The notes under the pieces: model-generated
What the model saw: only the letters and a program-made list of their open reading frames with translations
What the model was told of the DNA's origin: nothing
Databases searched by the model: none
Source: an uncultured Gammaproteobacteria bacterium
GTDB lineage: Bacteria > Patescibacteriota > Patescibacteriia > SG8-24
Assembly (NCBI GenBank): GCA_964486995.1
Contig: CAZAOV010000001.1
Coordinates: forward strand, 95,168 to 159,167
DNA length: 64,000 nt
Direction: 5' to 3'
In this document: piece by piece, positions 8,319 to 59,442 of the stretch
Layout: each line of letters begins with the position of its first letter
How positions within the stretch are numbered: the stretch's first letter is position 1
Position numbers and translations under genes: made by a program

Positions 8319-10682
8319 TTATTTTTTACCTTTCGTTAGCACTAAAGGGAGAACCTCATCCACGGTTTTCACAAAAACAAATTCCATGCTGTCCCGTACC
8401 TCCTGCGGCACGTCAGCCAAATCCCTGCGATTGTCGTGTGGCATTATTACTCGCTTGATGCCAGCGCGATGCGCGGCCAGACACTTCTCTTTGACGCCGC
8501 CGATTTCAAGCACTCGACCGCGCAACGTTATCTCCCCGGTCATGGCAACACTCCGGCTTAATTTGTTGCCGCCCAGTAACGACACCAGCGCCACGGCCAT
8601 AGCTACACCCGCGGACGGTCCGTCTTTAGGTATGGCTCCGGCCGGAACATGAATATGAAAATCAGTTTTCTGGTGAAAGTCCGCATTCACCCCCAGCTTG
8701 TCGGCCACCGACCGCACATAAGAAAATGCGGCTTGCGCGGATTCCTGCATAACCTCTCCAAGTTGCCCAGTCAAAATCAGTTTCCCCTTGCCCGGCATCT
8801 GGGTCGCTTCAATTTGCAGAATTTCACCGCCGGTCTGCGTCCACGCCAGGCCAGTCACCACACCGACCTCGTCGCGTGCACCGGCTTCCATGTGAGTAAA
8901 CTTGCGCGGACCCAAGAAATTCTCAACGTCTTTAGCACGAATATCTTTTCGCGGTTTAGTGCCCTCAACTACTTTCTTGGCGATCTTTCGGCATACCGAT
9001 GATATTTCTCGCTCCAGATTGCGCACGCCCGCCTCACGCGTATAATGACGAATCAACTCATGCAGTGCGGCTGGCTGGAACTTGCAGCCACGTCGCCCTA
9101 ACCCGTTGTTCCTAATCGCTTTCGGTATCAGATACCCCTTTGCAATCTCTGTCTTCTCACGCTCGGTGTAGCCGGGAAATTCAATCACCTCCATGCGATC
9201 CCGAAGGGCCGGCGGAATTGTGTCGAGCACGTTAGCCGTAGTAATGAACAGCACGTCAGACAAATCAAACGGCACTTCCAGATAATGATCAGAAAACTCA
9301 TGATTCTGTTCCGGATCAAGCGCCTCCAGTAACGCAGCTGACGGATCACCACGAAAATCAGAACCAATCTTATCGATTTCGTCCAGCATAAATACCGGAT
9401 TACAGGTACCGACATTAGCGATACCCTGGATAATTCGACCGGGCAACGCACCAACATATGTCCGCCGATGCCCGCGAATCTCAGCTTCGTCATGCACGCC
9501 ACCCAAGCTGACACGATGAAACTTCCGCCCGAGCGCCCGGGCGATAGACTTGCCGATAGAAGTCTTGCCGGTTCCGGGCGGCCCGGCAAAACACATTATC
9601 GACCCACGCATCTTGCCGACCAATTTTTGCACCGCCAAATACTCCAGCACGCGATCCTTGGGCTTATCCAAACCAAAATGATCCTCATCCAGAATTTTTT
9701 TGGCCTGCTTCACATCTATCTCGGATTCGTCTTTCTTGTCCCACGGCAAATCCGTCAGCCATTCAAGATATGTCCGAACGTACGACGCTTCCGGACTGAA
9801 CGACGGCATGGCTTTCAACCGATGATATTCTTTTATCGCCTTAGCCTTTGCGTCCTCCGGCATGTTGGCGGATTCAATACGTTCGCTCAAATCGTCATCG
9901 TCACTTTTGCCGTTGATGCCTTCCAGCTCTTTTTCAATCGATTTCAACTGCTCACGCAGAAACACTTCGCGCTGCATTTTGTCGAGCTCCTTACCGGTTT
10001 CGGCCTGAATCTGCGATGCCATCTGCAAAATTTTTACCTGTCGGCCTAAAGCCTGGCTGACGCGGTCCAATTTCTCTTCTGCGGTATTTGATTCGAGCAC
10101 GCCCTGTTTTTCCTTGACCGACATCTCCACGTTCGCGGCAATCATGTCGCCGAGCAGCCACGGCTCACTCATATTCAAAATCACCAACAGCACATCAAAC
10201 GACACGTTCGCCCCCATGTTCACCACTCGCCTAAACTGATTCAGCACGCTGTACATCAACGCTTCTATTCGTTCGGTCTTCTGATCGTTCGGCTCAAAAA
10301 ATGGCTTAACTACAGCCTTAATATATGGTTTCTCCACTGCGACTGACGCTATCCGAACCCGCGCTAACCCCTCTACCAAAACACGAATCGTTCCATCGTC
10401 CTGCTTCACCAACTCACGCACTCGAGCCAACGTACAAACTTCGTACAGCTGATCGACGGTGGGTTCACTGGCCTCCGGATTCTTTTGCGCTGAAAGCGCG
10501 ATTACCCGACCGTGCTTCATTGCGTCGTCCAGCGCCTGCGTGGACTTTTCTCGCCGAACCACAATCGGCATGGCCACGCGCGGAAAAGCCACGGTGTCCC
10601 GAAGCGGAATTAACGGCACCTCTCGAGACTTGCGGTCCGAGAAATATTGTTCGGCAAATTCTTGGTTGTCTTTTTGAGCCAT
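8319..10682 (-). CDS. lon: ATP-dependent Lon protease (LonA).
   Basis: Lon N-domain, Walker A 'GPPGTGKTS', 'DEIDK', and the catalytic Ser region 'PKDGPSAGVAMAVALVS'. Confidence 0.95.
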   Translation of the reverse strand: MAQKDNQEFAEQYFSDRKSREVPLIPLRDTVAFPRVAMPIVVRREKSTQALDDAMKHGRVIALSAQKNPEASEPTVDQLYEVCTLARVRELVKQDDGTIRVLVEGLARVRIASVAVEKPYIKAVVKPFFEPNDQKTERIEALMYSVLNQFRRVVNMGANVSFDVLLVILNMSEPWLLGDMIAANVEMSVKEKQGVLESNTAEEKLDRVSQALGRQVKILQMASQIQAETGKELDKMQREVFLREQLKSIEKELEGINGKSDDDDLSERIESANMPEDAKAKAIKEYHRLKAMPSFSPEASYVRTYLEWLTDLPWDKKDESEIDVKQAKKILDEDHFGLDKPKDRVLEYLAVQKLVGKMRGSIMCFAGPPGTGKTSIGKSIARALGRKFHRVSLGGVHDEAEIRGHRRTYVGALPGRIIQGIANVGTCNPVFMLDEIDKIGSDFRGDPSAALLEALDPEQNHEFSDHYLEVPFDLSDVLFITTANVLDTIPPALRDRMEVIEFPGYTEREKTEIAKGYLIPKAIRNNGLGRRGCKFQPAALHELIRHYTREAGVRNLEREISSVCRKIAKKVVEGTKPRKDIRAKDVENFLGPRKFTHMEAGARDEVGVVTGLAWTQTGGEILQIEATQMPGKGKLILTGQLGEVMQESAQAAFSYVRSVADKLGVNADFHQKTDFHIHVPAGAIPKDGPSAGVAMAVALVSLLGGNKLSRSVAMTGEITLRGRVLEIGGVKEKCLAAHRAGIKRVIMPHDNRRDLADVPQEVRDSMEFVFVKTVDEVLPLVLTKGKK

Positions 10683-10819
10683 GTGTAATGGGTAGTAAGG
10701 GGTACAAAAGTGTAAGGGTGGAAAGGCGGCATGGCTGGCGAATGCAGATGCAAGTCCTGTCGTCCTTCTGCCCCTATACTCCTATGCTTCTATAATCTTC
10801 GCCTCGGCGTTTCTACCCG

Positions 10820-11875
10820 CTAGGAGAAGAATCCGATATCGATGAGCGCCATCACGAAGCCCATCACCGAAGTCACGCCAGCGATAATCCAAAACCGCAT
10901 CACAATTTTTGGTTCGGACCAGCCGATCGCTTCAAAATGATGATGAATCGGCGCGGAGCGAAACACTTTCTTGCCGCCACGCAACTTCTTAGATGAAACC
11001 TGAATAATGACCGATGCTGATTCGAGCACAAAAATAAACCCGATTATCGGCAACAATAACGCGGTGTTTGTGAGCATGGCCACGATTCCGAGCGTAACAC
11101 CTAACGACATCGCGCCCGTATCACCCATGAAGAACCGCGCCGGATTGATGTTGAACCACAAGAACGCCAATAGCGCGCCGACGATTACCCCGCAAAACGC
11201 CGCCAAGTCTGTGCGGCCCTGCATGAACGCAATCGCTCCGTATGCGCCAAAGCTTGAAAGCAGAACGCCACCGGCCAACCCGTCCAGACCATCGGTCTCG
11301 TTAACCGAAAAGGACGTTGCCACAATCACGACAATGAACGCCATGATATACCACCAGCCGATATTGAAATTACCCAAAAACGGCACGCGCAGTAAATCCC
11401 AATCAAGCTTAAAATAAAACCACAAAGCCCCAACCAGCGCTATTACTGTGTAAACCACCAAACGATGTGCCATTGTAAGGCCGCCGCCATGCGGACCAAT
11501 CTTGCGAACATTAAAATAGTCATCCACCACACCAATCAACGCCGCAGCCACCAAAGCGCCGAGCGGCAACAGGGTCTGTGACCGAGACAAAAAATTGAAC
11601 CAAGAGAAGAACGGTCCACCGAACCACTGATTGCCAAAGTAAAAAAATAACGCCAACGCCAATACCGTCACCCAAATCAGAATTCCACCCATGGTCGGAG
11701 TGCCGGACTTGCCCTGATGCAGCTTCGAAAAAATCGGTGCAGACTTGGCATCACGTATCTGTTTACCCAACTTAAATTTATACAAAAAGTTCGTCAAAAG
11801 CGGCGTCCAACAAATGGCCACTAAAAACGATACTGTGGTCAGAAAAAAAATTTTGATTACACCGTAGATTTCCAT
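10820..11875 (-). CDS. mraY: MraY, phospho-N-acetylmuramoyl-pentapeptide transferase.
   Basis: Polytopic membrane protein with MraY-type loops, located upstream of the dcw genes. Confidence 0.9.
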   Translation of the reverse strand: MEIYGVIKIFFLTTVSFLVAICWTPLLTNFLYKFKLGKQIRDAKSAPIFSKLHQGKSGTPTMGGILIWVTVLALALFFYFGNQWFGGPFFSWFNFLSRSQTLLPLGALVAAALIGVVDDYFNVRKIGPHGGGLTMAHRLVVYTVIALVGALWFYFKLDWDLLRVPFLGNFNIGWWYIMAFIVVIVATSFSVNETDGLDGLAGGVLLSSFGAYGAIAFMQGRTDLAAFCGVIVGALLAFLWFNINPARFFMGDTGAMSLGVTLGIVAMLTNTALLLPIIGFIFVLESASVIIQVSSKKLRGGKKVFRSAPIHHHFEAIGWSEPKIVMRFWIIAGVTSVMGFVMALIDIGFFS

Positions 11876-12441: not shown

Positions 12442-12710
12442 CTAGGGCAAAATGTAACATTATTTTGAGATGGATTCAAGAGCGGTATATGCGTAATTGC
12501 AGCGATAAGTACGGCTGCGGAAGGCTGGAAAGATGTAGAGGTAAGGCAATATGGGGGCATGAAGCAGAAGAGCGGCGAAGCTCGCGGATGCGCATTTGCG
12601 CTTATCGCCCTTTTGCCCTTATGCTCTTTCACTCTTGTGCCCCTTTATATCATGCCTTTTAGCGAACCCGGCGCCGACTGCCCTATTTAAGGCAACTATC
12701 TCCAAAAATA

Positions 12711-32291: not shown

Positions 32292-32496
32292 TGGGATCAG
32301 TCCGTGTACAGATGGGTCTATTATTTTTTGCCGCGCACCTGTGCAAAAAACGTCAAACTTATTTTGAAGTGAGTCTGACGTTTTTTAAGGGCGAGCACCC
32401 GCAAAAAGGTGACGGCGGCGAGCAAGGCGGCCCACTTGGAAATGCGCGAAAAAGGCGATGATTTAGATAAATAACGTGACGTCAATCTTAAAAGAA

Positions 32497-34692: not shown

Positions 34693-34861
34693 CCTATGCG
34701 TAAGGCAATGATGCGCTTACTAAGTTAAAAACCAGTCTTTTTGTACCTTATCAAGCTCACCAATTTAGTCTAAGGACTTATCCCCAAAATAGGTGCCAGG
34801 GACCTATTTTGGGGATATCTCCAGATTTAAAAAACCGGACAACTGTCCGATTTTAATGTAC

Positions 34862-43449: not shown

Positions 43450-45654
43450 ATGGAGGTTGAATGTCCCAACAACAAGTATATCCTGTTTGCTGCCGTCTTT
43501 ACAGCAGTCGGTACTATAGCGGTATTCCTCCCCGCATCCCTGTGGCTGCGAATTTTTTTGGTTACCCTTTACTTTATTGGCAACGGTTATGTAATCGGTC
43601 GCATTACGCTAGCCGAGGAGCGCTTGGCGATCCGGGCACTGATTGGTTTTTTGATGCACGTGGCGGCTCTAATGATTGTGGGCAGTGCGGTTTATCTATT
43701 CTATCGCTTGAACCTAGCGGCAACAGCGGCGGTAATTATCTTAGCTCCGCTTCTGACCATACTGACCATGCGGCTGAACAATTGGCTAATCAGCCGCAAT
43801 ACAGTCAGCCTGAACGCAATAAAAACGCAACCTGAAACAGAAAAAAATAATTATGAAAATGTTCTAGCGATTATCGGAGTGATTCTGTCTATCGCCTTTT
43901 TTGCTTTTGCTGTGTACGGGCTCGGGCTGCTGGACGGCGCAACGACCGAGCTATCCATCAGATCACCTTGGGACTACGTGCCGCGACTGTTTTTTATTGT
44001 GATATTTGCAGTGGCGGCTGGCACCTTTGCCATGTCCGCCGGACGCTTGGCCGGTGCGGCCACTCTCCTACCGCTTGCCGGACTCTCGGTGCTGACCACC
44101 TCCGTTGCCGCCACGGTGTATGCCATCGGTTTCGGCTTTGATCCGTTCATTCACCAAGCCACGGAAAATCACATTTTCACTTACGGCGAAATGACCCCCA
44201 AACCGCCATATTATTTGGGGCAGTACGCTTTCATTACGGTTCTAGCTCGAATGACGGGCGGTCATGTCAACCTAATAGATACCTGGCTGGTTCCGCTGGC
44301 GTTCGCGTTAGTGATTCCGGTCGCTTATTGGTCATTACGCCGTTCGTTCAATTGGGACAGTCCGCTTGCCGCCGCGGCGTGCATACCCCTACTGGCACTG
44401 CCACTGTCGTCATTTGTAATGACCACACCACAAGGACTAGCAAATACGCTGCTGTTGATTACTACTTTTATGCTGATGGTGAGTGCGACCACGGACCGTA
44501 TTCGCCGTCTAGTTCCGGCGATGCTGGCCGTGGCCACCATAACGATACATCCGTTAGCCGGTGTGCCGCTGTTGCTTTTTGTGGCTATGGTGGCATATCT
44601 ACGCGCCTCGAATCGCCTGCGGAATCACCCGGAGATTCGCTGGGCCTTTTTTATGAAGCTGACTATCGTGACCTGCATCGCCTTGCCGGTAATGTTTATC
44701 GTTAATTCACGACTGTCGGACACTGGCGTGACATTGGACCAGGACACCATCCGAACTCCGGCCGCAATTATGGAACAGCTGAAAAATCCTGAACTGGAAA
44801 CGCGTCTATTTTCAGCGGCTCTGGACTTCGTTTATTTCTGGCGCACCAGTCGCACCGCGATTTGGGCTACGCTTGCCGCTGTCGGCGTGGCACTGCTCTG
44901 GTTTGCTGGTCGTAGAAAAGAAAACGATTTGATGTATGAGGCGGCAATCGCGTTTGGTGCCGGGGCAATCGCCTTCTTTGTGAATTACGTTTTACTAAGA
45001 GCTTGGGTGCGCTTCCCGTTCCTGATTGACTACGAAAGAACCAACTATGCCGATCGAATAGCTGATTTGGCTTTATTTATCGCCGCCCCACTCGCTCTTT
45101 ATGCGGTTGGACGATTCATTCAGCGCATGCGCAAGTACGGCTTCCCCACCCTAACGGCTGCCATGATTTTGTTGGTCGCGGCAATAATCGTGGCCAATAC
45201 TTACATCGCCTATCCACGACGCGACCGGTATGAATCTAGCCGCGGCTGGTCAACAAGCGCGTCCGACGTAAAAGCAGTGCAAACTATCGACAATGACTCA
45301 TCTGATGAGAATTATGTGGTTCTCGCGAATCAATCGGTTTCCGCTGCCGCTATCCGTGAGTTGGGTTTCAAAAAATATTACGAATCGAACGACGAAGAAA
45401 ACCTCGAGCCGGTTTTCTTCTACCCCATCCCAACCGGAGGTCCGCTCTATGAAATATTCCTGGACGCCAACGAACAGAGCGGAGCGACGGAGGCGATTCA
45501 GGAAGCCATGAATCTAGTGGGCGTTGATGTCGCATATTACGTAGTGAATCACTACTGGTGGCAGGCGCAACAAATCGTTATCAAGGCAAAAAAGGAAGCG
45601 GATTCGTGGTGGGAAATTGATGACAAGGTCTGGGTATTTAAATACTCCAAATAG
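43450..45654 (+). CDS. Large (~735 aa) polytopic membrane protein with >12 TM and a C-terminal soluble domain. Putative glycan polymerase/transferase. Start uncertain (ORF opens at 43375 but overlaps the divergent gene).
   Basis: Hydrophobicity pattern only, with no diagnostic motif. Embedded in the glycan locus. Confidence 0.4.
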   Translation: MEVECPNNKYILFAAVFTAVGTIAVFLPASLWLRIFLVTLYFIGNGYVIGRITLAEERLAIRALIGFLMHVAALMIVGSAVYLFYRLNLAATAAVIILAPLLTILTMRLNNWLISRNTVSLNAIKTQPETEKNNYENVLAIIGVILSIAFFAFAVYGLGLLDGATTELSIRSPWDYVPRLFFIVIFAVAAGTFAMSAGRLAGAATLLPLAGLSVLTTSVAATVYAIGFGFDPFIHQATENHIFTYGEMTPKPPYYLGQYAFITVLARMTGGHVNLIDTWLVPLAFALVIPVAYWSLRRSFNWDSPLAAAACIPLLALPLSSFVMTTPQGLANTLLLITTFMLMVSATTDRIRRLVPAMLAVATITIHPLAGVPLLLFVAMVAYLRASNRLRNHPEIRWAFFMKLTIVTCIALPVMFIVNSRLSDTGVTLDQDTIRTPAAIMEQLKNPELETRLFSAALDFVYFWRTSRTAIWATLAAVGVALLWFAGRRKENDLMYEAAIAFGAGAIAFFVNYVLLRAWVRFPFLIDYERTNYADRIADLALFIAAPLALYAVGRFIQRMRKYGFPTLTAAMILLVAAIIVANTYIAYPRRDRYESSRGWSTSASDVKAVQTIDNDSSDENYVVLANQSVSAAAIRELGFKKYYESNDEENLEPVFFYPIPTGGPLYEIFLDANEQSGATEAIQEAMNLVGVDVAYYVVNHYWWQAQQIVIKAKKEADSWWEIDDKVWVFKYSK

Positions 45655-45664
45655 GAATAGCCTC

Positions 45665-45726
45665 ATTTAAAAAATCGTCAGACAGTTTTTCGCTCTAAGA
45701 CGAAAAACTGTCTGACGATTTTTTAA
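45665..45726. terminator. Long perfect hairpin (~22-bp arms, AAAAATCGTCAGACAGTTTTTCG / CGAAAAACTGTCTGACGATTTTTT). Bidirectional terminator.
   Basis: Inverted repeat with flanking A/T runs, between convergent genes. Confidence 0.75.
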
Positions 45727-45744
45727 ACGGTCGTCAACATCTGA

Positions 45745-46959
45745 TTAGTTCCCATAAACGCTCTCTAGCGTGGAAACGTGTGATTCTGTCGTCATTTTTT
45801 TAGCCGTGTTCAGCGCTCTTTCTCCTAATTCATTATTGCCTTTTATGGCTCGACTAAGCGCCTCAAGCAAGCTGTCTGCATGACCCGACTCAAAAATAAA
45901 ACCATTCTCACCATCCCGCACTAACTCGGGAATACCGCCGACATCGGCAGCGATAACCGGCACACCGCGACTGAAAGCCCCCAAAATTACCATAGGAGCG
46001 TTTTCGATGACCTTCGAAGGCACGACCAGGTATGCGGCCTCGGCATAATGCTTGTTCAGTCCAGCACCGTATATCGGACCTTCGAATTTAGTTCCATCCA
46101 TCGATTCCATTCTGGCCTTTACTTTATGCCTCAGGGAGCCGTCACCGATCACGTGCAGAACCGCATCACCCCGCTCTCCCCACTTCTCCCAAGCTTCCAG
46201 CAAATTCATCACACCCTTATGTTCCTCCAGCTGCCCGATAAAAATAAAATCCTTTGCCCCCCTAACTCCCTGAACCCCCACTCCCTCCACGGGATTCCTC
46301 AACACCACCTTGGTCGATTTCGGAAAAAAACCAAATCGATTATGCAACTGTTTCGAATGCTCCGACGGAAACAACACCACGGACGGCGACCCCATCATTA
46401 CTTTCATCAGCCAGATATAAATCCACTCGTGCGGCCAGTGCGGTCGCCAATTTACCGGCAATAGCCCTGACGGATGAAGTAGCTGCACGTCATGCACGGT
46501 ATGCACGTGCCGAATCTGCATCTTCCAAATTAAATTAGGGATGGTAAATCCTAAGCCCATCAAATTGTGAGTATGCACCACATTAGGTCGATAAGCCTTG
46601 ATGATTTTTTTCAGCTGCTCGGCCGACCGCCAATTAAAAATATCCAGCCAGTGCCAAACCAACCGCCCGAGCCATGACTTGCCTTCCAAGTCCGTATAGA
46701 AGCAGCTGTTGGGCGGATAGTATGTAAAGTGCCCCACCTCGTTCTCACTGGAACTGAAGCCGATTGCACTACCGCACAGATCATCGGGAAGTCCAGGCGA
46801 ACAAACACCGGCCGATAGCGTGTCAGATTCAGAAACCCCACTCACCACAACCACATCATGACCGCGCTCACGTAAGGCGTTTGCTTCTATCTCAACCACG
46901 CGCTCGGCGCCCCCACGTGCGTGAAAACCGTATAAATTTGAAACTAATAATATCTTCAT
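45745..46959 (-). CDS. Glycosyltransferase family 4 (GT-B).
   Basis: 'KILLVSNLYGFHARGGAERVV' N-domain and a C-terminal EX7E-type region. Confidence 0.75.
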   Translation of the reverse strand: MKILLVSNLYGFHARGGAERVVEIEANALRERGHDVVVVSGVSESDTLSAGVCSPGLPDDLCGSAIGFSSSENEVGHFTYYPPNSCFYTDLEGKSWLGRLVWHWLDIFNWRSAEQLKKIIKAYRPNVVHTHNLMGLGFTIPNLIWKMQIRHVHTVHDVQLLHPSGLLPVNWRPHWPHEWIYIWLMKVMMGSPSVVLFPSEHSKQLHNRFGFFPKSTKVVLRNPVEGVGVQGVRGAKDFIFIGQLEEHKGVMNLLEAWEKWGERGDAVLHVIGDGSLRHKVKARMESMDGTKFEGPIYGAGLNKHYAEAAYLVVPSKVIENAPMVILGAFSRGVPVIAADVGGIPELVRDGENGFIFESGHADSLLEALSRAIKGNNELGERALNTAKKMTTESHVSTLESVYGN

Positions 46960-50270: not shown

Positions 50271-51290
50271 CTAGTCAAATGATGGGCGTAAAATATCCTT
50301 ATGCGCCACGGTATATTCAACGGTCTTCTTTAATCCCTGCTCCAAAGTCACTAACGGAATCCAACCAGTTTCCTTAATCTTGCTCAGATCGGGCAGACCC
50401 AAATCTCGCATGAACGGCAATCGGTCGCGAAATACAATCTGCGATTTGGAGCCGGTCATTTCGAGAATCTTACTAGCTACATCAACCAGCTTAATATCAT
50501 AGTCGCTGCCCATATTCATCGGTCCCGGATCCTCCGGTAGTTCCATCAGACGTATTATTGCATCCACCACATCCGTGACGAAAATCAACGAAGAACGGAA
50601 ATTATCATCACCGTATATCACCAGCTCGCGGCCATCTATCGCATCGAGCACAAAATCGGGAACCATGTGTCCATCAGCCAGCGTCTGGCGCGGTCCGTAA
50701 GTGCGAAAGATGCGTCCAATTCTGGTGTCTAGTCCGTGTGCATCACGATACGTATTGCACATGGTTTCCGCAAACCGCTTGCCTTCGTCATAGCAACCGC
50801 GCGGTGTCATGTGGTCGAAACGGCCAAACTCGTCTTCAGAAAAAAGATGCCCATCCTCTGGACGAGTGCCGTAAATTACCGAAGTGGAAGCCTGAAAAAA
50901 CTTAGCCTTATACTTCAGCGCCAAGTCCAGCACATTTCGCATACCCACTGAATTGGCCATCAGCGTATCGTGCTTATACTCATCGAACTTTTTTGGTGAA
51001 GTCGGACAGGCTAAATGATACACTTCCTGCACGCCCTGAAATTTCAGCTTGAACCTTTCCAATTCGGGATATATCTCCAAATCGAGCGGCTCAGAAATAT
51101 TAGCATTGATAAATTCAAAATCCGGATTCTTGAACAGTTGATTGATGTTAGCCTGCTGGGAAGTAATGAAATTATCGACGCAAATAACCTTGTTTTCTTT
51201 AAGCAGGCGTTCGCAAAGAAACGATCCGATGAATCCAGCACCACCGGTAACTAAGACGTTTTTCTTCTCAAATATTGGCTTGTCTTCCAT
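50271..51290 (-). CDS. UDP-glucuronate decarboxylase / UDP-xylose synthase-like SDR.
   Basis: 'VLVTGGAGFIGSFLCERLL', YxxxK, and UXS-like length. Confidence 0.75.
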   Translation of the reverse strand: MEDKPIFEKKNVLVTGGAGFIGSFLCERLLKENKVICVDNFITSQQANINQLFKNPDFEFINANISEPLDLEIYPELERFKLKFQGVQEVYHLACPTSPKKFDEYKHDTLMANSVGMRNVLDLALKYKAKFFQASTSVIYGTRPEDGHLFSEDEFGRFDHMTPRGCYDEGKRFAETMCNTYRDAHGLDTRIGRIFRTYGPRQTLADGHMVPDFVLDAIDGRELVIYGDDNFRSSLIFVTDVVDAIIRLMELPEDPGPMNMGSDYDIKLVDVASKILEMTGSKSQIVFRDRLPFMRDLGLPDLSKIKETGWIPLVTLEQGLKKTVEYTVAHKDILRPSFD

Positions 51291-51485
51291 AAATGTGGTG
51301 TCTTATTTCTAAGCGGTGGCTCAGACACGCTGAATGCTGCTATTCGCACGCATTACAGCATGTCTTCGCGTGGGTTAGGTATTGGCGTCCGTGCCAAGTT
51401 TTAGTTCGCTGACAACAATAATTTCTGTATGGGAATTATACGTCTTTAGGCTGGCAGAGGCAAGAAAAAGGCTTAAATATAAGAA

Positions 51486-51600
51486 AAAGTATAGATGTGT
51501 AGAGGTGTAGATGTTTAGGAGACCCACACACTTACGATAGACGCCTGATGCAAACGTGGAGGTCTGCCACACTTCTACACCTCTATACTTCTACACTATT
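51486..51600. repeat. ORF-less inverted pair of 3x 8-bp tandem-repeat arrays (GTATAGAT GTGTAGAG GTGTAGAT ... CTTCTACA CCTCTATA CTTCTACA) around a 58-bp spacer. It belongs to the same repeat family that brackets the 4HB gene at 58922-59406.
   Basis: Read directly. The arms are able to form a long imperfect stem. Confidence 0.6.
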
Positions 51601-52024
51601 CTCTAAATGCCCACTTCTTATAGAGCGTAAAATTCCACAAAATGACGCATCCGGTCGCAAACACCTTGGCGATGATGTCATAGACCCCCAGATTAATTAG
51701 CGTGTACATCAGCAAAGCATTCAGACCCAGGCTGGCGAAAGTCACCATCAAATATTTTGGCATGCGCCCAGCCATGCCGTCGCGTTTTTTCCGAAAAGTC
51801 CAAAAATTGTTCAGCGTAAAACTAGAAACCATACCGCAACAGTATGACACCACAGCGGCCAGCACCAGACGTTCACCCCAGAATTCAAAAATGCGTGTCA
51901 TGAAAATGTACACGCTGAAATCTACCAGGGTATTCACCGTTCCGACGATACAGAACTTAATGAGTTGGCGAGCAGTGGCATGGCGATATGCCAATACCCT
52001 CAAATTGCTGATGAACTTTACCAT
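51596..52024 (-). CDS. GtrA-family polysaccharide-synthesis membrane protein.
   Basis: 4-TM protein, 'FCIVGTVNTLVDFSVYIFM' GtrA signature. Confidence 0.7.
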   Translation of the reverse strand: MVKFISNLRVLAYRHATARQLIKFCIVGTVNTLVDFSVYIFMTRIFEFWGERLVLAAVVSYCCGMVSSFTLNNFWTFRKKRDGMAGRMPKYLMVTFASLGLNALLMYTLINLGVYDIIAKVFATGCVILWNFTLYKKWAFRE

Positions 52025-52030
52025 GACCGA

Positions 52031-54115
52031 TTAATGTATGAATCGAGCTCTGACTCCGCCACGATGATGCATTCCGTAGGCTTGAAAAGTAATCTCGGGC
52101 CGAGCAGATGAGGCGGTCACGGTTACCGCAGGTGCCTTGCCTTCTAGTGATCCCCAAACCGTGCGGTGAGGCGCGGTTGTGTTGGGAGTTTCTAGGCCAA
52201 CTCCGCTGGCGGTCATCTCCGGTACCGCACCACCATCGCCTAAATAATCTCCCTGTCCGTTGTAGACCGCGGTCGTCGGTTCTCCTTTCGGGTCATGACC
52301 CTGCACAACCAGCTCAACCGTGCCGTCACCGTCCAAGTCCTCCATCATCACCATCATTCCACGATCATAGTCGATACCGAAGGGCATAATAGTAAATAGG
52401 TGTGTGCCGTGTTTATCGAAGATACGCACTTCGGGTTTACCGCGTCCCGGTGATACGGCAATCTCTGTTTCGCCATCGTTATTGAAATCACCGGCAGCAA
52501 CGTCTGTCCCCCCGCGATAGCCTTCCTCAAAGGCGAAAAATCCGCCGAGCACCTGACCTCGCTTATCAAACACCCGAATATGCGGACCGCCACCTGGACC
52601 GGCTCCGGTTATAATTTCATCAATGCCATCGTCATCCAAATCGCTGACATCAATCTCGACCCCACCCCGGAAATCGCTATTATAGGCGAAAAATCCGCCG
52701 ATCGGTCGTGTATTTATGTCAAAAATTCTAACGTGCGGACCGCCGCCGGACAGTGCACCAGCTATAATGCTGTCACGATGAGTGCCGTCAAAGTTACCGA
52801 TAGCAAGCGAAACACCGCCCATAAACGATTCGGGGAACGCATTAAAGCTCCGAACAAACAGGCCGTATTCGGTAAAAATTCTTACTTCAGGAGCATGACC
52901 GGCGCCGGGACTAGTAACTACATAGCGACCGTAAGCTTCTTCTGGTGCCAACATTGCCGTAGCTTTCACCTGCTCTATGGGTTGCAGCTGCTGATCTTGC
53001 AGGACCTTTTTCACTGCCGCCGCGGCATCAATCCGACCACGTCCTAGACGACCAAAATAATCTTCGTTCAAAATGTCAATATTTTCCGAAGTCTCGGTTA
53101 AGATGTTCATCACCCTCTTAGGGGTTAATGCGCTATCGAGCGAAAACATCAACGACACCAGACCTGAAACCAGAGGAGCGGCCACGGAAGTCCCGCTGTA
53201 ATAACCACCATAGGCTTCAACAAAATCCATGCTCCCAGGAACAACGACCTGAGTGGAAATTATTCTTTCCCCCGGAGCGCTGATATCAATACAGGCGGCT
53301 CCGTAGTTAGAGAACTCGGCTTTCAAATCGTCTGCGTCGGTCGCCGCCACCCCGTAGACGTAATTTACGTTTGAATCGCGATCAAAACAAACCGGATAAA
53401 GCGGGTTGCGATCAAGATTATCCGCCTCGCCGTTATCCGGCGCATTGCCGGCTGCCGCCACCACAAATACGCCGCTGTCATAGGCACGACGAAGCGCATG
53501 GTTCAGCCGCGAGCTATAAGTCGAACCAACAAAGCTAAGATTAATGACTTTGGCTCCGTTATTGACTGCATAATCAACCGCACGCGCCACATCGTTTGGG
53601 TCTCCTACCCCATTTGAATCCAGCGCGCGTATCGGCATTATTGGCACTTGCCAGGCGACGCCCACGATACCAATCCGGTTATCGCCCTTAGCTGACGCCA
53701 GGCCAGCGCTAATTGTGCCGTGGTTCGCACCTAACAGTGAATAGTCACCGTAAGTATGCGGACTTGGGTCATTATCAGAATCAACGAAATCCCAGCCGAC
53801 GATGTCATCGACATATCCGTTGCCGTCGTTATCAACCCCGTCACCGGCGACCTCGTAGACGTTGCGCCAAATATTATCTTTTAAATCGGGATGATCCAAA
53901 TCAATGCCGCTGTCTATAATCGCAATCGGCACATTTTCCATGCCCAAACTGTACTGCCAAGCTTCCGGTGCTCCGATATGCGACAGATACCACTGCTGTT
54001 CAAAAAACTGGTCATCCGGAACACGCGCCGATGCAGCGCCCGGAAACCATAAATAGCTGGCCGTAAACAGCACCAGCATGATTAACATTGCTCGATTCAC
54101 TGGAGTTTGTTTCAT
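52031..54115 (-). CDS. Secreted subtilisin-like (S8) serine protease with a C-terminal FG-GAP/VCBS-like repeat domain. The signal peptide starts at 'MKQTPVNRAMLIMLVL'; the longer ORF runs to 54151.
   Basis: Asp 'AIIDSGID', His 'HGT', Ser 'GTSVAAP', then repeated 'D.D.DG..E' beta-propeller blades. Confidence 0.85.
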   Translation of the reverse strand: MKQTPVNRAMLIMLVLFTASYLWFPGAASARVPDDQFFEQQWYLSHIGAPEAWQYSLGMENVPIAIIDSGIDLDHPDLKDNIWRNVYEVAGDGVDNDGNGYVDDIVGWDFVDSDNDPSPHTYGDYSLLGANHGTISAGLASAKGDNRIGIVGVAWQVPIMPIRALDSNGVGDPNDVARAVDYAVNNGAKVINLSFVGSTYSSRLNHALRRAYDSGVFVVAAAGNAPDNGEADNLDRNPLYPVCFDRDSNVNYVYGVAATDADDLKAEFSNYGAACIDISAPGERIISTQVVVPGSMDFVEAYGGYYSGTSVAAPLVSGLVSLMFSLDSALTPKRVMNILTETSENIDILNEDYFGRLGRGRIDAAAAVKKVLQDQQLQPIEQVKATAMLAPEEAYGRYVVTSPGAGHAPEVRIFTEYGLFVRSFNAFPESFMGGVSLAIGNFDGTHRDSIIAGALSGGGPHVRIFDINTRPIGGFFAYNSDFRGGVEIDVSDLDDDGIDEIITGAGPGGGPHIRVFDKRGQVLGGFFAFEEGYRGGTDVAAGDFNNDGETEIAVSPGRGKPEVRIFDKHGTHLFTIMPFGIDYDRGMMVMMEDLDGDGTVELVVQGHDPKGEPTTAVYNGQGDYLGDGGAVPEMTASGVGLETPNTTAPHRTVWGSLEGKAPAVTVTASSARPEITFQAYGMHHRGGVRARFIH

Positions 54116-54207
54116 GGATGTAAATTCATTGCCGAGATTATACTGCCGCATTCAGTAACGAGGGTATTGTACAGAGAGAATAAAATAATGAAAAGTGCTT
54201 TTGCGAA

Positions 54208-58921: not shown

Positions 58922-58947
58922 TGTGTAGAAGTATAGAAGTATAGTAG
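58922..58947. repeat. Left 8-bp tandem-repeat array (TGTGTAGAA GTATAGAA GTATAGTA) flanking the 4HB gene. Inverted partner at 59383-59406.
   Basis: Read directly. Same repeat family as 51486-51600. Confidence 0.6.
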
Positions 58948-59010
58948 GTTGTTTTGGCTAAATATTTCCGTTTGACAACATCGGGACACACTGATAAGCA
59001 ATGTCTTAAT

Positions 59011-59376
59011 ATGAATGTCAGAACTCCATTTACTGAGCTACGAATATGGAAACAAGCGCACAAACTTGCGTTAGAAATTTATAGTATTTCAAACAAATTT
59101 CCGGTCGAGGAAAAATTTGGACTGCAATCCCAAATTAGACGCTCTGTTTCCTCTGTTTCGGCCAATATTGCTGAAGCATCCGGCAGAGAAACCAGGAAAG
59201 ATATTGCTAGATTTCTAACAATATCGAGAGGGTCCGTTCAGGAAACCATCAGCCACTGCTTACTTGCTAAAGACTTGGGAATTATTGATGAAAGCGAGGC
59301 TAATCTGATTATCAATAAATACAATATCCTGGCTGCAGGAATACACAAGTATAAATATGTGGTAATGAATAGGTAG
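59011..59376 (+). CDS. Four-helix-bundle protein of the '23S rRNA intervening-sequence protein' / DGR-Avd family (PF05635/TIGR02436-like). Start at the internal 'MNVRTPFTELRIW'; the ORF opens at 58954.
   Basis: 'W..AH.LALEIY.I...FP.EEKFGL.SQIRRS..SV.ANIAEA.GR....D..RFL.IS.GS..E' matches the family. This is the only plus-strand gene in a minus-strand neighbourhood. Confidence 0.75.
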   Translation: MNVRTPFTELRIWKQAHKLALEIYSISNKFPVEEKFGLQSQIRRSVSSVSANIAEASGRETRKDIARFLTISRGSVQETISHCLLAKDLGIIDESEANLIINKYNILAAGIHKYKYVVMNR

Positions 59377-59382
59377 CCACCC

Positions 59383-59406
59383 TCCTACACTTCTATACTT
59401 CTATAC
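59383..59406. repeat. Right inverted 8-bp tandem-repeat array (CTACACTT CTATACTT CTATACCC).
   Basis: Inverted relative to 58922-58947. Confidence 0.6.
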
Positions 59407-59410
59407 CCCT

Positions 59411-59442
59411 AAACAAAAAACCACCCGTAGGGTGGTTTTTTG
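59411..59442 (+). terminator. Rho-independent terminator CCACCC-gta-GGGTGG-TTTTTT after the 4HB gene.
   Basis: Hairpin with a 6-nt T-run and an A-run 5'. Confidence 0.75.

Follow-up and report, generated by a model that had tools for sequence, protein, structure and literature searches.

A hairpin with tandem-repeat arms lies between gtrA and a UXS-like gene

We analyzed a 64,000-nt stretch of bacterial DNA (positions 95,168 to 159,167 of contig CAZAOV010000001.1, assembly GCA_964486995.1; hereafter the window, numbered from its first letter), focusing on a short hairpin at 51485-51600 between gtrA and a gene for a UXS-like NAD epimerase/dehydratase, both on the − strand. gtrA (51596-52024, −; PF04138, E 2e-26) is the last gene of a unit that it forms with an S8 peptidase gene (52031-54151, −), and its stop codon abuts the hairpin. 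The UXS gene (50271-51290, −), whose homologues are named UDP-glucuronate decarboxylase, is the first gene of the next unit and is preceded by a sigma-70-like promoter at 51435-51463 (−; TTGCCT, 17 nt, TATAAT). The PF04138 and epimerase/dehydratase matches confirm the location that a first-pass annotation of this DNA had given for the element. The closest homologues of the neighboring genes are from Patescibacteria, Uhrbacteria, and Parcubacteria (UXS identity 83% and below), and, since the nearest UXS homologues are patescibacterial, the window is from a bacterium of the candidate phyla radiation (CPR). We assign the hairpin, with high confidence, to a class of stem-loops with arms built of short tandem repeats, of which it is a member without a gene.

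The first-pass annotation had described inverted arrays of an 8-bp repeat at 51486-51600, and pattern search, inverted-repeat search, and folding all recover them. Convergent (GTRTAGAN)x3 arrays lie at 51489-51512 (+) and 51573-51596 (−). In a pattern search of the window, GTRTAGANGTRTAGANGTRTAGA matches exactly at 51489-51511 (+) and 51574-51596 (−), and matches with one mismatch at 58923-58945 (+) and 59384-59406 (−). Overlapping array matches total 7, vs. 0.00 expected from 100 dinucleotide-preserving shuffles, and a regular-expression scan finds exactly four arrays of two or more units in the 64 kb, forming two convergent pairs; single GTRTAG hexamers are scattered over the window (16 on the + strand, 17 on the − strand). 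Because there are only four arrays, all in convergent pairs, the repeat is not a ubiquitous simple sequence in the window.

In the transcription sense of gtrA and UXS, the 5′ arm (51573-51596, −) reads GTGTAGAA GTATAGAG GTGTAGAA, and the 3′ arm (51489-51512, −) reads ATCTACAC CTCTACAC ATCTATAC (GTATAGAT GTGTAGAG GTGTAGAT on the + strand). The arrays are separated by 60 nt (51513-51572, −), not by the 58 nt first reported, and this inner part comprises an inner stem and a loop and, on either side, a fourth unit in degenerate form (GTGTGGCAG / CTCCTAAAC); each arm thus contains three exact units and one degenerate unit, with a period of 8. The inverted repeat extends past the arrays: its arms, 51485-51529 and 51556-51600, are 45 nt long, 78% complementary, and 26 nt apart, and inverted-repeat search and folding define an entire stem-loop at 51485-51600 (−), having an imperfect stem of 45-50 bp in a hairpin of ~110 bases. 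Folding of 51475-51610 yields −56.1 kcal/mol (z −8.2) on the − strand and −48.5 kcal/mol (z −6.6) on the + strand; the fold is stronger on the transcribed (−) strand.

The position of the hairpin is precise at both ends. Its 5′ arm opens with the final G of the gtrA stop codon, TAG (51598-51596), and directly 3′ of the stem, which ends at 51489, is a T-tract, TTTTTCTT (51481-51488, −). A consensus terminator scanner gave no call at the hairpin, because loop and stem exceed the limits of the scanner. A second copy of TTTTTCTT, at 51462-51469 (−), is fused to the −35 box of the UXS promoter. The two boxes are separated by ATATTTAAGCC, whereas relatives have one box, fused to the −35 TTGC, and the doubled box suggests that the promoter-proximal segment was locally duplicated. 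The sole open reading frame (ORF) spanning hairpin sequence (51375-51572, −; 65 aa, GTG start) matches nothing in Pfam or NCBIfam; an Rfam scan of the window yields no family above threshold and no rRNA, and a tRNA scan of the window is likewise empty. An independent Logan assembly of run SRR7048221 (L001; labels of this form denote matched stretches of other sequences) is identical over 3,104 nt, hairpin included, indicating that the hairpin is not an artefact of one assembler, with the proviso that the reads are possibly the same.

The hairpin shares its arms with a four-helix-bundle gene cassette in the same window

The second convergent pair of arrays encloses a gene for a predicted four-helix-bundle (4HB) protein (59011-59376, +; PF05635 23S_rRNA_IVP, E 4e-34; TIGR02436), in agreement with the first-pass annotation, which had placed this gene between the same inverted arrays. 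The 5′ arm of the cassette (58923-58951, +) reads GTGTAGAA GTATAGAA GTATAGTAGGTTG, the 3′ arm (59378-59406, +) starts 2 nt past the stop codon, and in both the minimum-free-energy and the centroid folds of the cassette RNA the two arms form the closing stem. Outside the cassette is an ordinary terminator (59415-59441, +; A-tract, CCACCC-GTA-GGGTGG, T-tract), which is also present at an orthologous 4HB locus (L209). The closest solved structure to the 4HB protein is 2GSC (Xanthomonas XCC0516), which has five chains in a single entry and is described in the literature as a homopentamer.

Comparison of hairpin and cassette shows that 22 of 25 positions match between the 5′ arms, with the unit variants in the same order, and that 19 of 22 positions match between the 3′ arms. 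Just 0.5% of random 4HB locus pairs are as alike as the two loci of the window, and units elsewhere are diverse (53 units at 64 loci; see below). As judged from these likenesses, the assignment of the two sets of arms to one repeat family, as the first-pass annotation had proposed, holds (p ~0.005). The same annotation had further proposed that the gtrA-UXS element is a MITE-like copy or a copy left empty by excision, and this the results do not bear out. The interiors are unrelated (60 nt of hairpin interior vs. cassette interior: score 12 vs. a shuffle mean of 11.6, p 0.47). The borders of the hairpin, GAGAATAG|...|TTTTTCTT (AATAG vs. TTTTT), contain no direct repeat and hence no target-site duplication. 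No transposase is associated with either locus of the window, and the PF05635 cassette has no transposase domain. The shared arms are likely to go back to a common ancestor or to gene conversion inside a single repeat family, rather than to gene excision. There is no second full-length copy of the hairpin within the 64 kb; copies of the unit comprise the two clear pairs and two degenerate relatives (10683-10800 and 12540-12660).

The 4HB gene at the orthologous place in L209 (109-504) has the same outside terminator and arms built from a different unit (GTGCTAG/GTGCCGG), and its protein is 41% identical to that of the window, vs. 80% for UXS; the divergence reflects either very fast evolution or replacement of the cassette.

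The gtrA-UXS junction varies among relatives

The gene order S8 peptidase-gtrA-UXS-GT2 is kept in relatives, as are the gtrA stop codon, the T-rich box, and the UXS promoter (its position is kept in L120, L122, L123, L206, L207, L209, and L212); the segment between them varies. In L120, L121, L211, and L212 the junction has a hairpin with arms of 9-nt units, (CGGGAGAAG)n and (CTTCTGCCC)n. In L123 and L206 it has small hairpins and a T-run. In L209/L210 and L207 there is no hairpin between stop codon and promoter, the stop codon of L209 directly abutting the −35 box; the hairpin is therefore dispensable at this site. Further repeat-armed hairpins are present at or near other stop codons of relatives (L122 5418-5490; L212 2528-2618 and 7813-7897), and the hairpin units of the lineage end in AGAAG or a close variant (GTRTAGAA-G in the window; CGGGAGAAG, GGGGCAGAAG, and GCGGGGAA in relatives). 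Given the varied junction hairpins and the additional hairpins at other stop codons, we conclude that gene-end repeat-armed hairpins are a recurring, fast-changing feature of this CPR lineage. Compared for covariation, the hairpins of the window and L120 align in their flanks, but their arms, of 8-mers and 9-mers, cannot be reliably aligned.

The junction hairpins of L122 and L212, which are of the 9-mer type, contain additional palindromes nested in the loop (L122 2967-3187; L212 5775-6109). The nested structure of L212 is ~280 nt long and GC-rich (−203 kcal/mol for 359 nt folded). Hairpin loops of this kind seem to accept further insertions.

Most PF05635 genes are enclosed by tandem arrays of their own unit

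PF05635/TIGR02436 genes are among the commonest genes annotated without function in Cyanobacteria, Bacteroidota, Planctomycetota, and CPR. To generalize from the window, we scanned metagenomes with a nine-sequence alignment and obtained 80 loci with PF05635 genes (L126-L205), 72 of which have enough flank for a test for a periodic array within 150 nt of the gene, at a threshold that 5% of the control windows taken from these loci pass. A tandem array is present upstream at 89% and downstream at 68% of the 72 loci (controls 5%), and 43 of the 72 have arrays on both sides. The array period is mainly 7, more rarely 8 or 6. The median distance from the stop codon to the start of the 3′ array is 3 nt, and that from the end of the 5′ array to the start codon is 30 nt. 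Within a locus the two arrays are complementary in inverted orientation, with inverted-repeat scores that average 31.3, vs. 17.4 for mismatched flanks, and exceed the null maximum at 25 of 76 loci. The units are cassette-specific (53 consensus units at 64 loci), and none is like GTRTAGAN. Variation within arrays clusters in one or two unit columns (0.79 vs. 0.68 expected, p 6.5e-6), which argues for a constrained core of the unit. Two contigs have two 4HB genes each, with different units (L148, 1424-2750, with units TAATCGT and CTAATTN; L141, 300-1800), and gene-less arrays of a cassette's own unit adjoin some cassettes (L132, L145, and L180). A comparison of protein with unit among five 4HB proteins gives no signal of correlation.

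In 28 loci the 5′ arm has the G-rich strand with a TAG or CAG core 5′ of the loop, and in 3 loci the opposite is the case (p 4.6e-6). We considered and rejected this bias as a mark of strand polarity: because an inverted repeat reads alike on both strands, the bias is an inside/outside polarity, with the G-rich/YAG strand 5′ of the loop, and is silent on which strand is transcribed. We likewise rejected insulation from translation by stop codons in three frames, to which a TAG every 8 nt might have pointed; only 28-34% of arms are closed in every frame, and strands and arms are alike in this respect.

Counterparts of both loci of the window are found in cyanobacteria. All 14 of the plasmid matches to the 4HB protein of the window are cyanobacterial. 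Within 172 kb of plasmid pNPUN01 of Nostoc punctiforme (1-171910, L214-L217) there are three 4HB genes, each with heptamer arms of its own (CAGGAGT, GGGTGTA, and GGAAGTC), and, 560 nt from the first of them, between co-directional genes, a gene-less inverted (CAGGAGT)n pair (958-1093) that folds with −61.1 kcal/mol in the sense and −43.0 kcal/mol in the antisense orientation. The protein of the window shares 45% identity with Npun2, whose unit is GTRTAG-like, and 41% with Npun1. Other gene-less inverted pairs on pNPUN01 are (GGCAGGA)n at 46625-46821 and (GAGTAAT)n at 44807-44887, and the second 4HB gene is annotated with a 140-aa ORF that extends into the 3′ array region of this gene. On plasmid alpha of Nostoc sp. 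PCC 7120 (L213, 4140-4193), a 4HB gene has a (CTTCTGC/CCTCTGC)n 3′ array, with no 5′ array detected; the unit resembles the CPR GGGGCAGAAG family, and transposase genes lie upstream, suggesting that the cassette may have been split by insertion.

The octamer alone is not diagnostic

A scan of species-representative genomes for exact (GTRTAGAN)3 yields at least 118 stretches from many phyla. Among the matches listed, most are plain unpaired arrays, and 13 have an inverted partner within 170 nt, 11 of these 13 being outside long ORFs. A 4HB gene lies beside the array in 2 of the 118 listed stretches (L020 and L107); the single-sequence phmmer search next to arrays was weak, and a hidden Markov model of 120 homologues yields the same two loci. 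As arrays elsewhere are mostly unpaired, we conclude that the unit sequence alone is not diagnostic and that convergent pairing is.

Some metagenome-assembled genomes have many exact GTRTAGAN arrays, namely Planctomycetota JBDRIB (L025, L043, L047, and L064), Cyclobacteriaceae JBDSIM (L018, L053, L060, and L081), and Chloroflexota JALZCF (L006, L037, and L068). Among the matches listed, most arrays of these three genomes have no inverted partner, and none is beside a 4HB gene.

Other hairpins of the window

Other operon ends of the window have ordinary GC-rich stems of 9-20 bp followed by T-tracts. Near-perfect palindromes with arms of 20-27 nt are present at 45666-45727, 2025-2073, 32345-32386, and 34774-34822, two of which (45666-45727 and 32345-32386) have A- and T-tracts at the outer ends of the arms. 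The four are probably ordinary, partly bidirectional terminators, and they indicate that long stems are common at gene ends in the host genome. The UXS leader (51291-51434, ~145 nt) has two small hairpins (51334-51361 and 51382-51397) and no Rfam match; the leaders in L120, L122, L123, and L209 are just ~25-45 nt long.

Of the two degenerate relatives, that at 10683-10800 lies between − strand genes (8319-10682 and 10820-11875), has a right arm that reads, as reverse complement, TATAGAAG CATAGGAG TATAGGGG CAGAAGG, and folds with −43.3 kcal/mol (z −2.7) on the + strand vs. −27.8 kcal/mol on the − strand. That at 12540-12660, in a divergent intergenic region, is a weakly periodic purine-rich/pyrimidine-rich hairpin (GATGTAGAG GTAAGGCA ... 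/ CTTTTGCC CTTATGCT ...) with a z of only ~−1.8.

Discussion

Relation to known repeat-armed and palindromic elements

The short tandemly repeated repetitive (STRR) elements of cyanobacteria and their hairpins, including one in RNase P RNA, were reportedly described by Mazel in 1990 and Vioque in 1997, and we know of no explanation of the repeats given since 1990. The hairpin of the window shares with them short head-to-tail units, inverted arrays that fold into a long hairpin, and an intergenic position between co-directional genes. It differs from them in its unit (8 nt in the window and 9 nt in close relatives, vs. 7 nt in STRR) and in its host (CPR/Patescibacteria, vs. the heterocyst-forming cyanobacteria of the original STRR definition). 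pNPUN01 displays the same pairing as the window, (CAGGAGT)n forming both the arms of a 4HB gene and those of a gene-less hairpin nearby. STRR hairpins are present between hupS and hupL, where an effect on transcript stability has been proposed (PMC2670836).

The first-pass annotation had likened the element to rRNA intervening sequences (IVSs), and the likeness is apt. The IVS of the Coxiella 23S rRNA has an ORF for S23p (of PF05635 type), a 28-bp closing stem that RNase III cuts in the middle, and, upstream of the ORF, tandem GACAGAT heptamers whose copy number differs among strains (PMC4990558). rRNA insertions of CPR bacteria carry 23S_rRNA_IVP ORFs (PMC11270868). The IVSs of Coxiella, Leptospira, and CPR (S23p / 23S_rRNA_IVP) share the PF05635 protein family with the 4HB cassette, and terminal inverted repeats that form an enclosing stem with both cassette and hairpin. 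They differ from both in their location, since neither element of the window is in an rRNA gene and the hairpin sits between protein-coding genes, and from the hairpin in having an ORF. We hold with high confidence that the class to which the hairpin belongs matches both cyanobacterial STRR hairpins and the stems of ORF-carrying rRNA IVSs. STRR hairpins and IVS stems were already known; an octamer unit in a CPR host is new. Our coverage of the literature, which was incomplete, turned up no statement that PF05635 genes generally sit in tandem-repeat stems, and only the Coxiella IVS heptamers as a case.

Likenesses to three further kinds of element are partial. Repetitive extragenic palindromic (REP) sequences, their inverted pairs (REPINs), and the REP-associated tyrosine transposases (RAYTs) were reportedly described by Nunvar in 2010 and by Bertels and Rainey in 2011. 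As in the window, and likewise in Nostoc punctiforme, they combine a gene bracketed by an inverted dispersed repeat with gene-less copies; the gene-less palindromes are intergenic, often right after stop codons, and there is one repeat family per gene copy. RAYTs, however, are Y1 (IS200/IS605-like) transposases of known chemistry, whereas the gene of the window belongs to PF05635/TIGR02436, and REPs are single imperfect palindromes, whereas the arms of the window are tandem arrays. With Rho-independent terminators the hairpin shares its position 3′ of a stop codon, at an operon boundary, ahead of a T-run; unlike them, it has arms homologous to another locus. With miniature inverted-repeat transposable elements (MITEs) it shares shortness, terminal inverted repeats, absence of an ORF, and presence or absence at orthologous sites; unlike them, its copies share the arms only and not the interior, and there is no related autonomous transposon.

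Proposed role of the hairpin

According to the reading that we favor, to which we give a probability of roughly 0.55, the hairpin is a member of the repeat-armed class that acts in RNA, as a 3′ end, a terminator, or an RNase III stem. Transcription on the − strand would make the hairpin the 3′ end of the S8 peptidase-gtrA message, and the transcript would fold into an imperfect RNA duplex of 45-50 bp followed by U5CUU. This structure would stop or pause RNA polymerase and so set the operon boundary, and the duplex, being longer than 20 bp, would serve both as a substrate for RNase III and as a barrier to 3′ exonucleases. The outcome would be a stable 3′ stub ahead of the UXS operon, which has a promoter of its own. 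A processing or terminator role, which the first-pass annotation had also raised, would suit the position of the hairpin and is plausible. In 5 of 6 gene-less hairpins of known gene direction the better fold is that of the sense strand, which is modest support for action at the RNA level.

Several results weigh against this reading. For the hairpins at L212 7813 and at 10683 of the window the antisense strand gives the better fold. Among the matches listed, the 13 gene-less GTRTAGAN hairpins from other phyla have no T-tract and no consistent orientation to neighboring genes. In 4HB closing stems the asymmetry of G-U wobbles is not significant (62 vs. 46, p 0.15). L209 and L207 do without a hairpin at the junction, and conservation of the T-tract may reflect its fusion to the UXS −35 region rather than a terminator tail. 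Finally, an AU/GU-rich stem of ~50 bp with periodic mismatches is atypical for a terminator, and other operon ends of the window have GC-rich stems of 9-20 bp.

Alternative explanations

It is possible, albeit unlikely, that the hairpin is a non-autonomous selfish repeat, of REPIN or MITE type, whose insertion is of little benefit to the host and whose trans-acting partner is the 4HB protein, as RAYT is for REPINs. Mobility of this kind would fit junctions that are occupied (window, L120) or empty (L209/L210, L207) at orthologous places, the presence of one 9-mer family at different junctions (L120, L122, and L212), and the additional palindromes nested within hairpin loops, although the junction hairpins may also be orthologous and simply diverged. 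A partnership with the 4HB protein would fit the finding that every 4HB gene is paired with a unit of its own (as for the three genes of one Nostoc plasmid and the two each of L148 and L141) and that gene-less hairpins share the unit of a nearby cassette (window cassette, Npun cassette 1, L132, and L145), yet exact GTRTAGAN arrays elsewhere are rarely beside a 4HB gene (2 of the 118 listed stretches), protein and unit do not correlate (window protein 45% to Npun2, 41% to Npun1), and arm homology is the sole link between the two loci of the window. Against it, too, are the lack of a target-site duplication and the fact that, to our knowledge, PF05635 has no recombinase or nuclease motif and no catalytic motif. 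An origin of the hairpin as a scar, left by deletion of the 4HB ORF from a full cassette, is very improbable. Arm order and orientation are as in the cassette, and ORF-carrying and ORF-less IVSs both occur in rRNA genes; the hairpin interior, however, is unlike the cassette leader (p 0.47) and forms an inner stem of its own, and relatives carry ORF-less hairpins at the junction but never a 4HB gene.

Two further accounts concern what the arms do rather than how they arrived. That the hairpin is a plain intrinsic terminator of the gtrA unit, with tandem arms that are a by-product of slippage and are unconnected to the 4HB gene, seems improbable to us. The hairpin comes right after the stop codon and is followed by TTTTTCTT, intrinsic terminators are used elsewhere in the genome, and hairpin plus T-run recurs at the junction in L123, L206, L120, and L122; comparable intra-operon hairpins of relatives, by contrast, have no T-tracts, and the stem is 3-5 times longer than those of the ordinary terminators of the window. 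Independent slippage, moreover, would not be expected to yield arms that match at 22 of 25 positions with variants in the same order, and the clustering of variation in one or two columns (p 6.5e-6) argues for a constrained core. Quite improbable, in turn, is a role of the hairpin as an array of sites bound by the pentameric 4HB protein, whose gene lies 7.4 kb away; the protein would recognize the units in RNA, in its own message as well as in targets such as the hairpin, and thereby control stability or read-through. Avd and its template RNA work together in the reverse-transcription complex of diversity-generating retroelements (DGRs). PF05635 proteins are homologous to Avd (weak NF033474 match; homology per PMC10053308), and the five chains of 2GSC, a homopentamer per the literature, the cassette-specific units with their conserved core and variable columns, and the sharing of a unit between gene-less hairpins and the nearby cassette are likewise in favor of this account. 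Base-paired arms, however, would conceal single-stranded motifs, covariation of protein and unit is absent in the few comparisons possible, and S23p of Coxiella is apparently not made in vivo (PMC4990558).

Implications

Hairpins of the kind described here bear on annotation: they mark gene and operon boundaries in CPR genomes, and ORF calls that run through arrays can be inflated by them. The wider pattern, in which cassette-specific stems enclose most PF05635 genes and have gene-less partners, is a more interesting result than the hairpin itself. The window provides a clean minimal case of this pattern, with a gene-carrying and a gene-less stem of one unit 7 kb apart; the same pairing is present in Nostoc punctiforme, which is genetically tractable. 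The pattern links ORF-carrying rRNA intervening sequences, STRR hairpins, and stand-alone Avd-like genes, and makes their relationship testable. On a much more speculative view, which we regard as improbable as a whole, PF05635 proteins and STRR-type hairpins would constitute a widespread two-part system: each gene would lie in a stem of its own 6-9-nt unit, gene-less hairpins such as that at 51485-51600 would be its partners, and the pentamer would recognize the units as RNA or single-stranded DNA, regulating messages or propagating hairpins, perhaps with a host reverse transcriptase, as Avd does in DGRs. If true, such a system would give a function to a very large protein family of unknown function, to the cyanobacterial STRRs, and to ORF-carrying rRNA intervening sequences.

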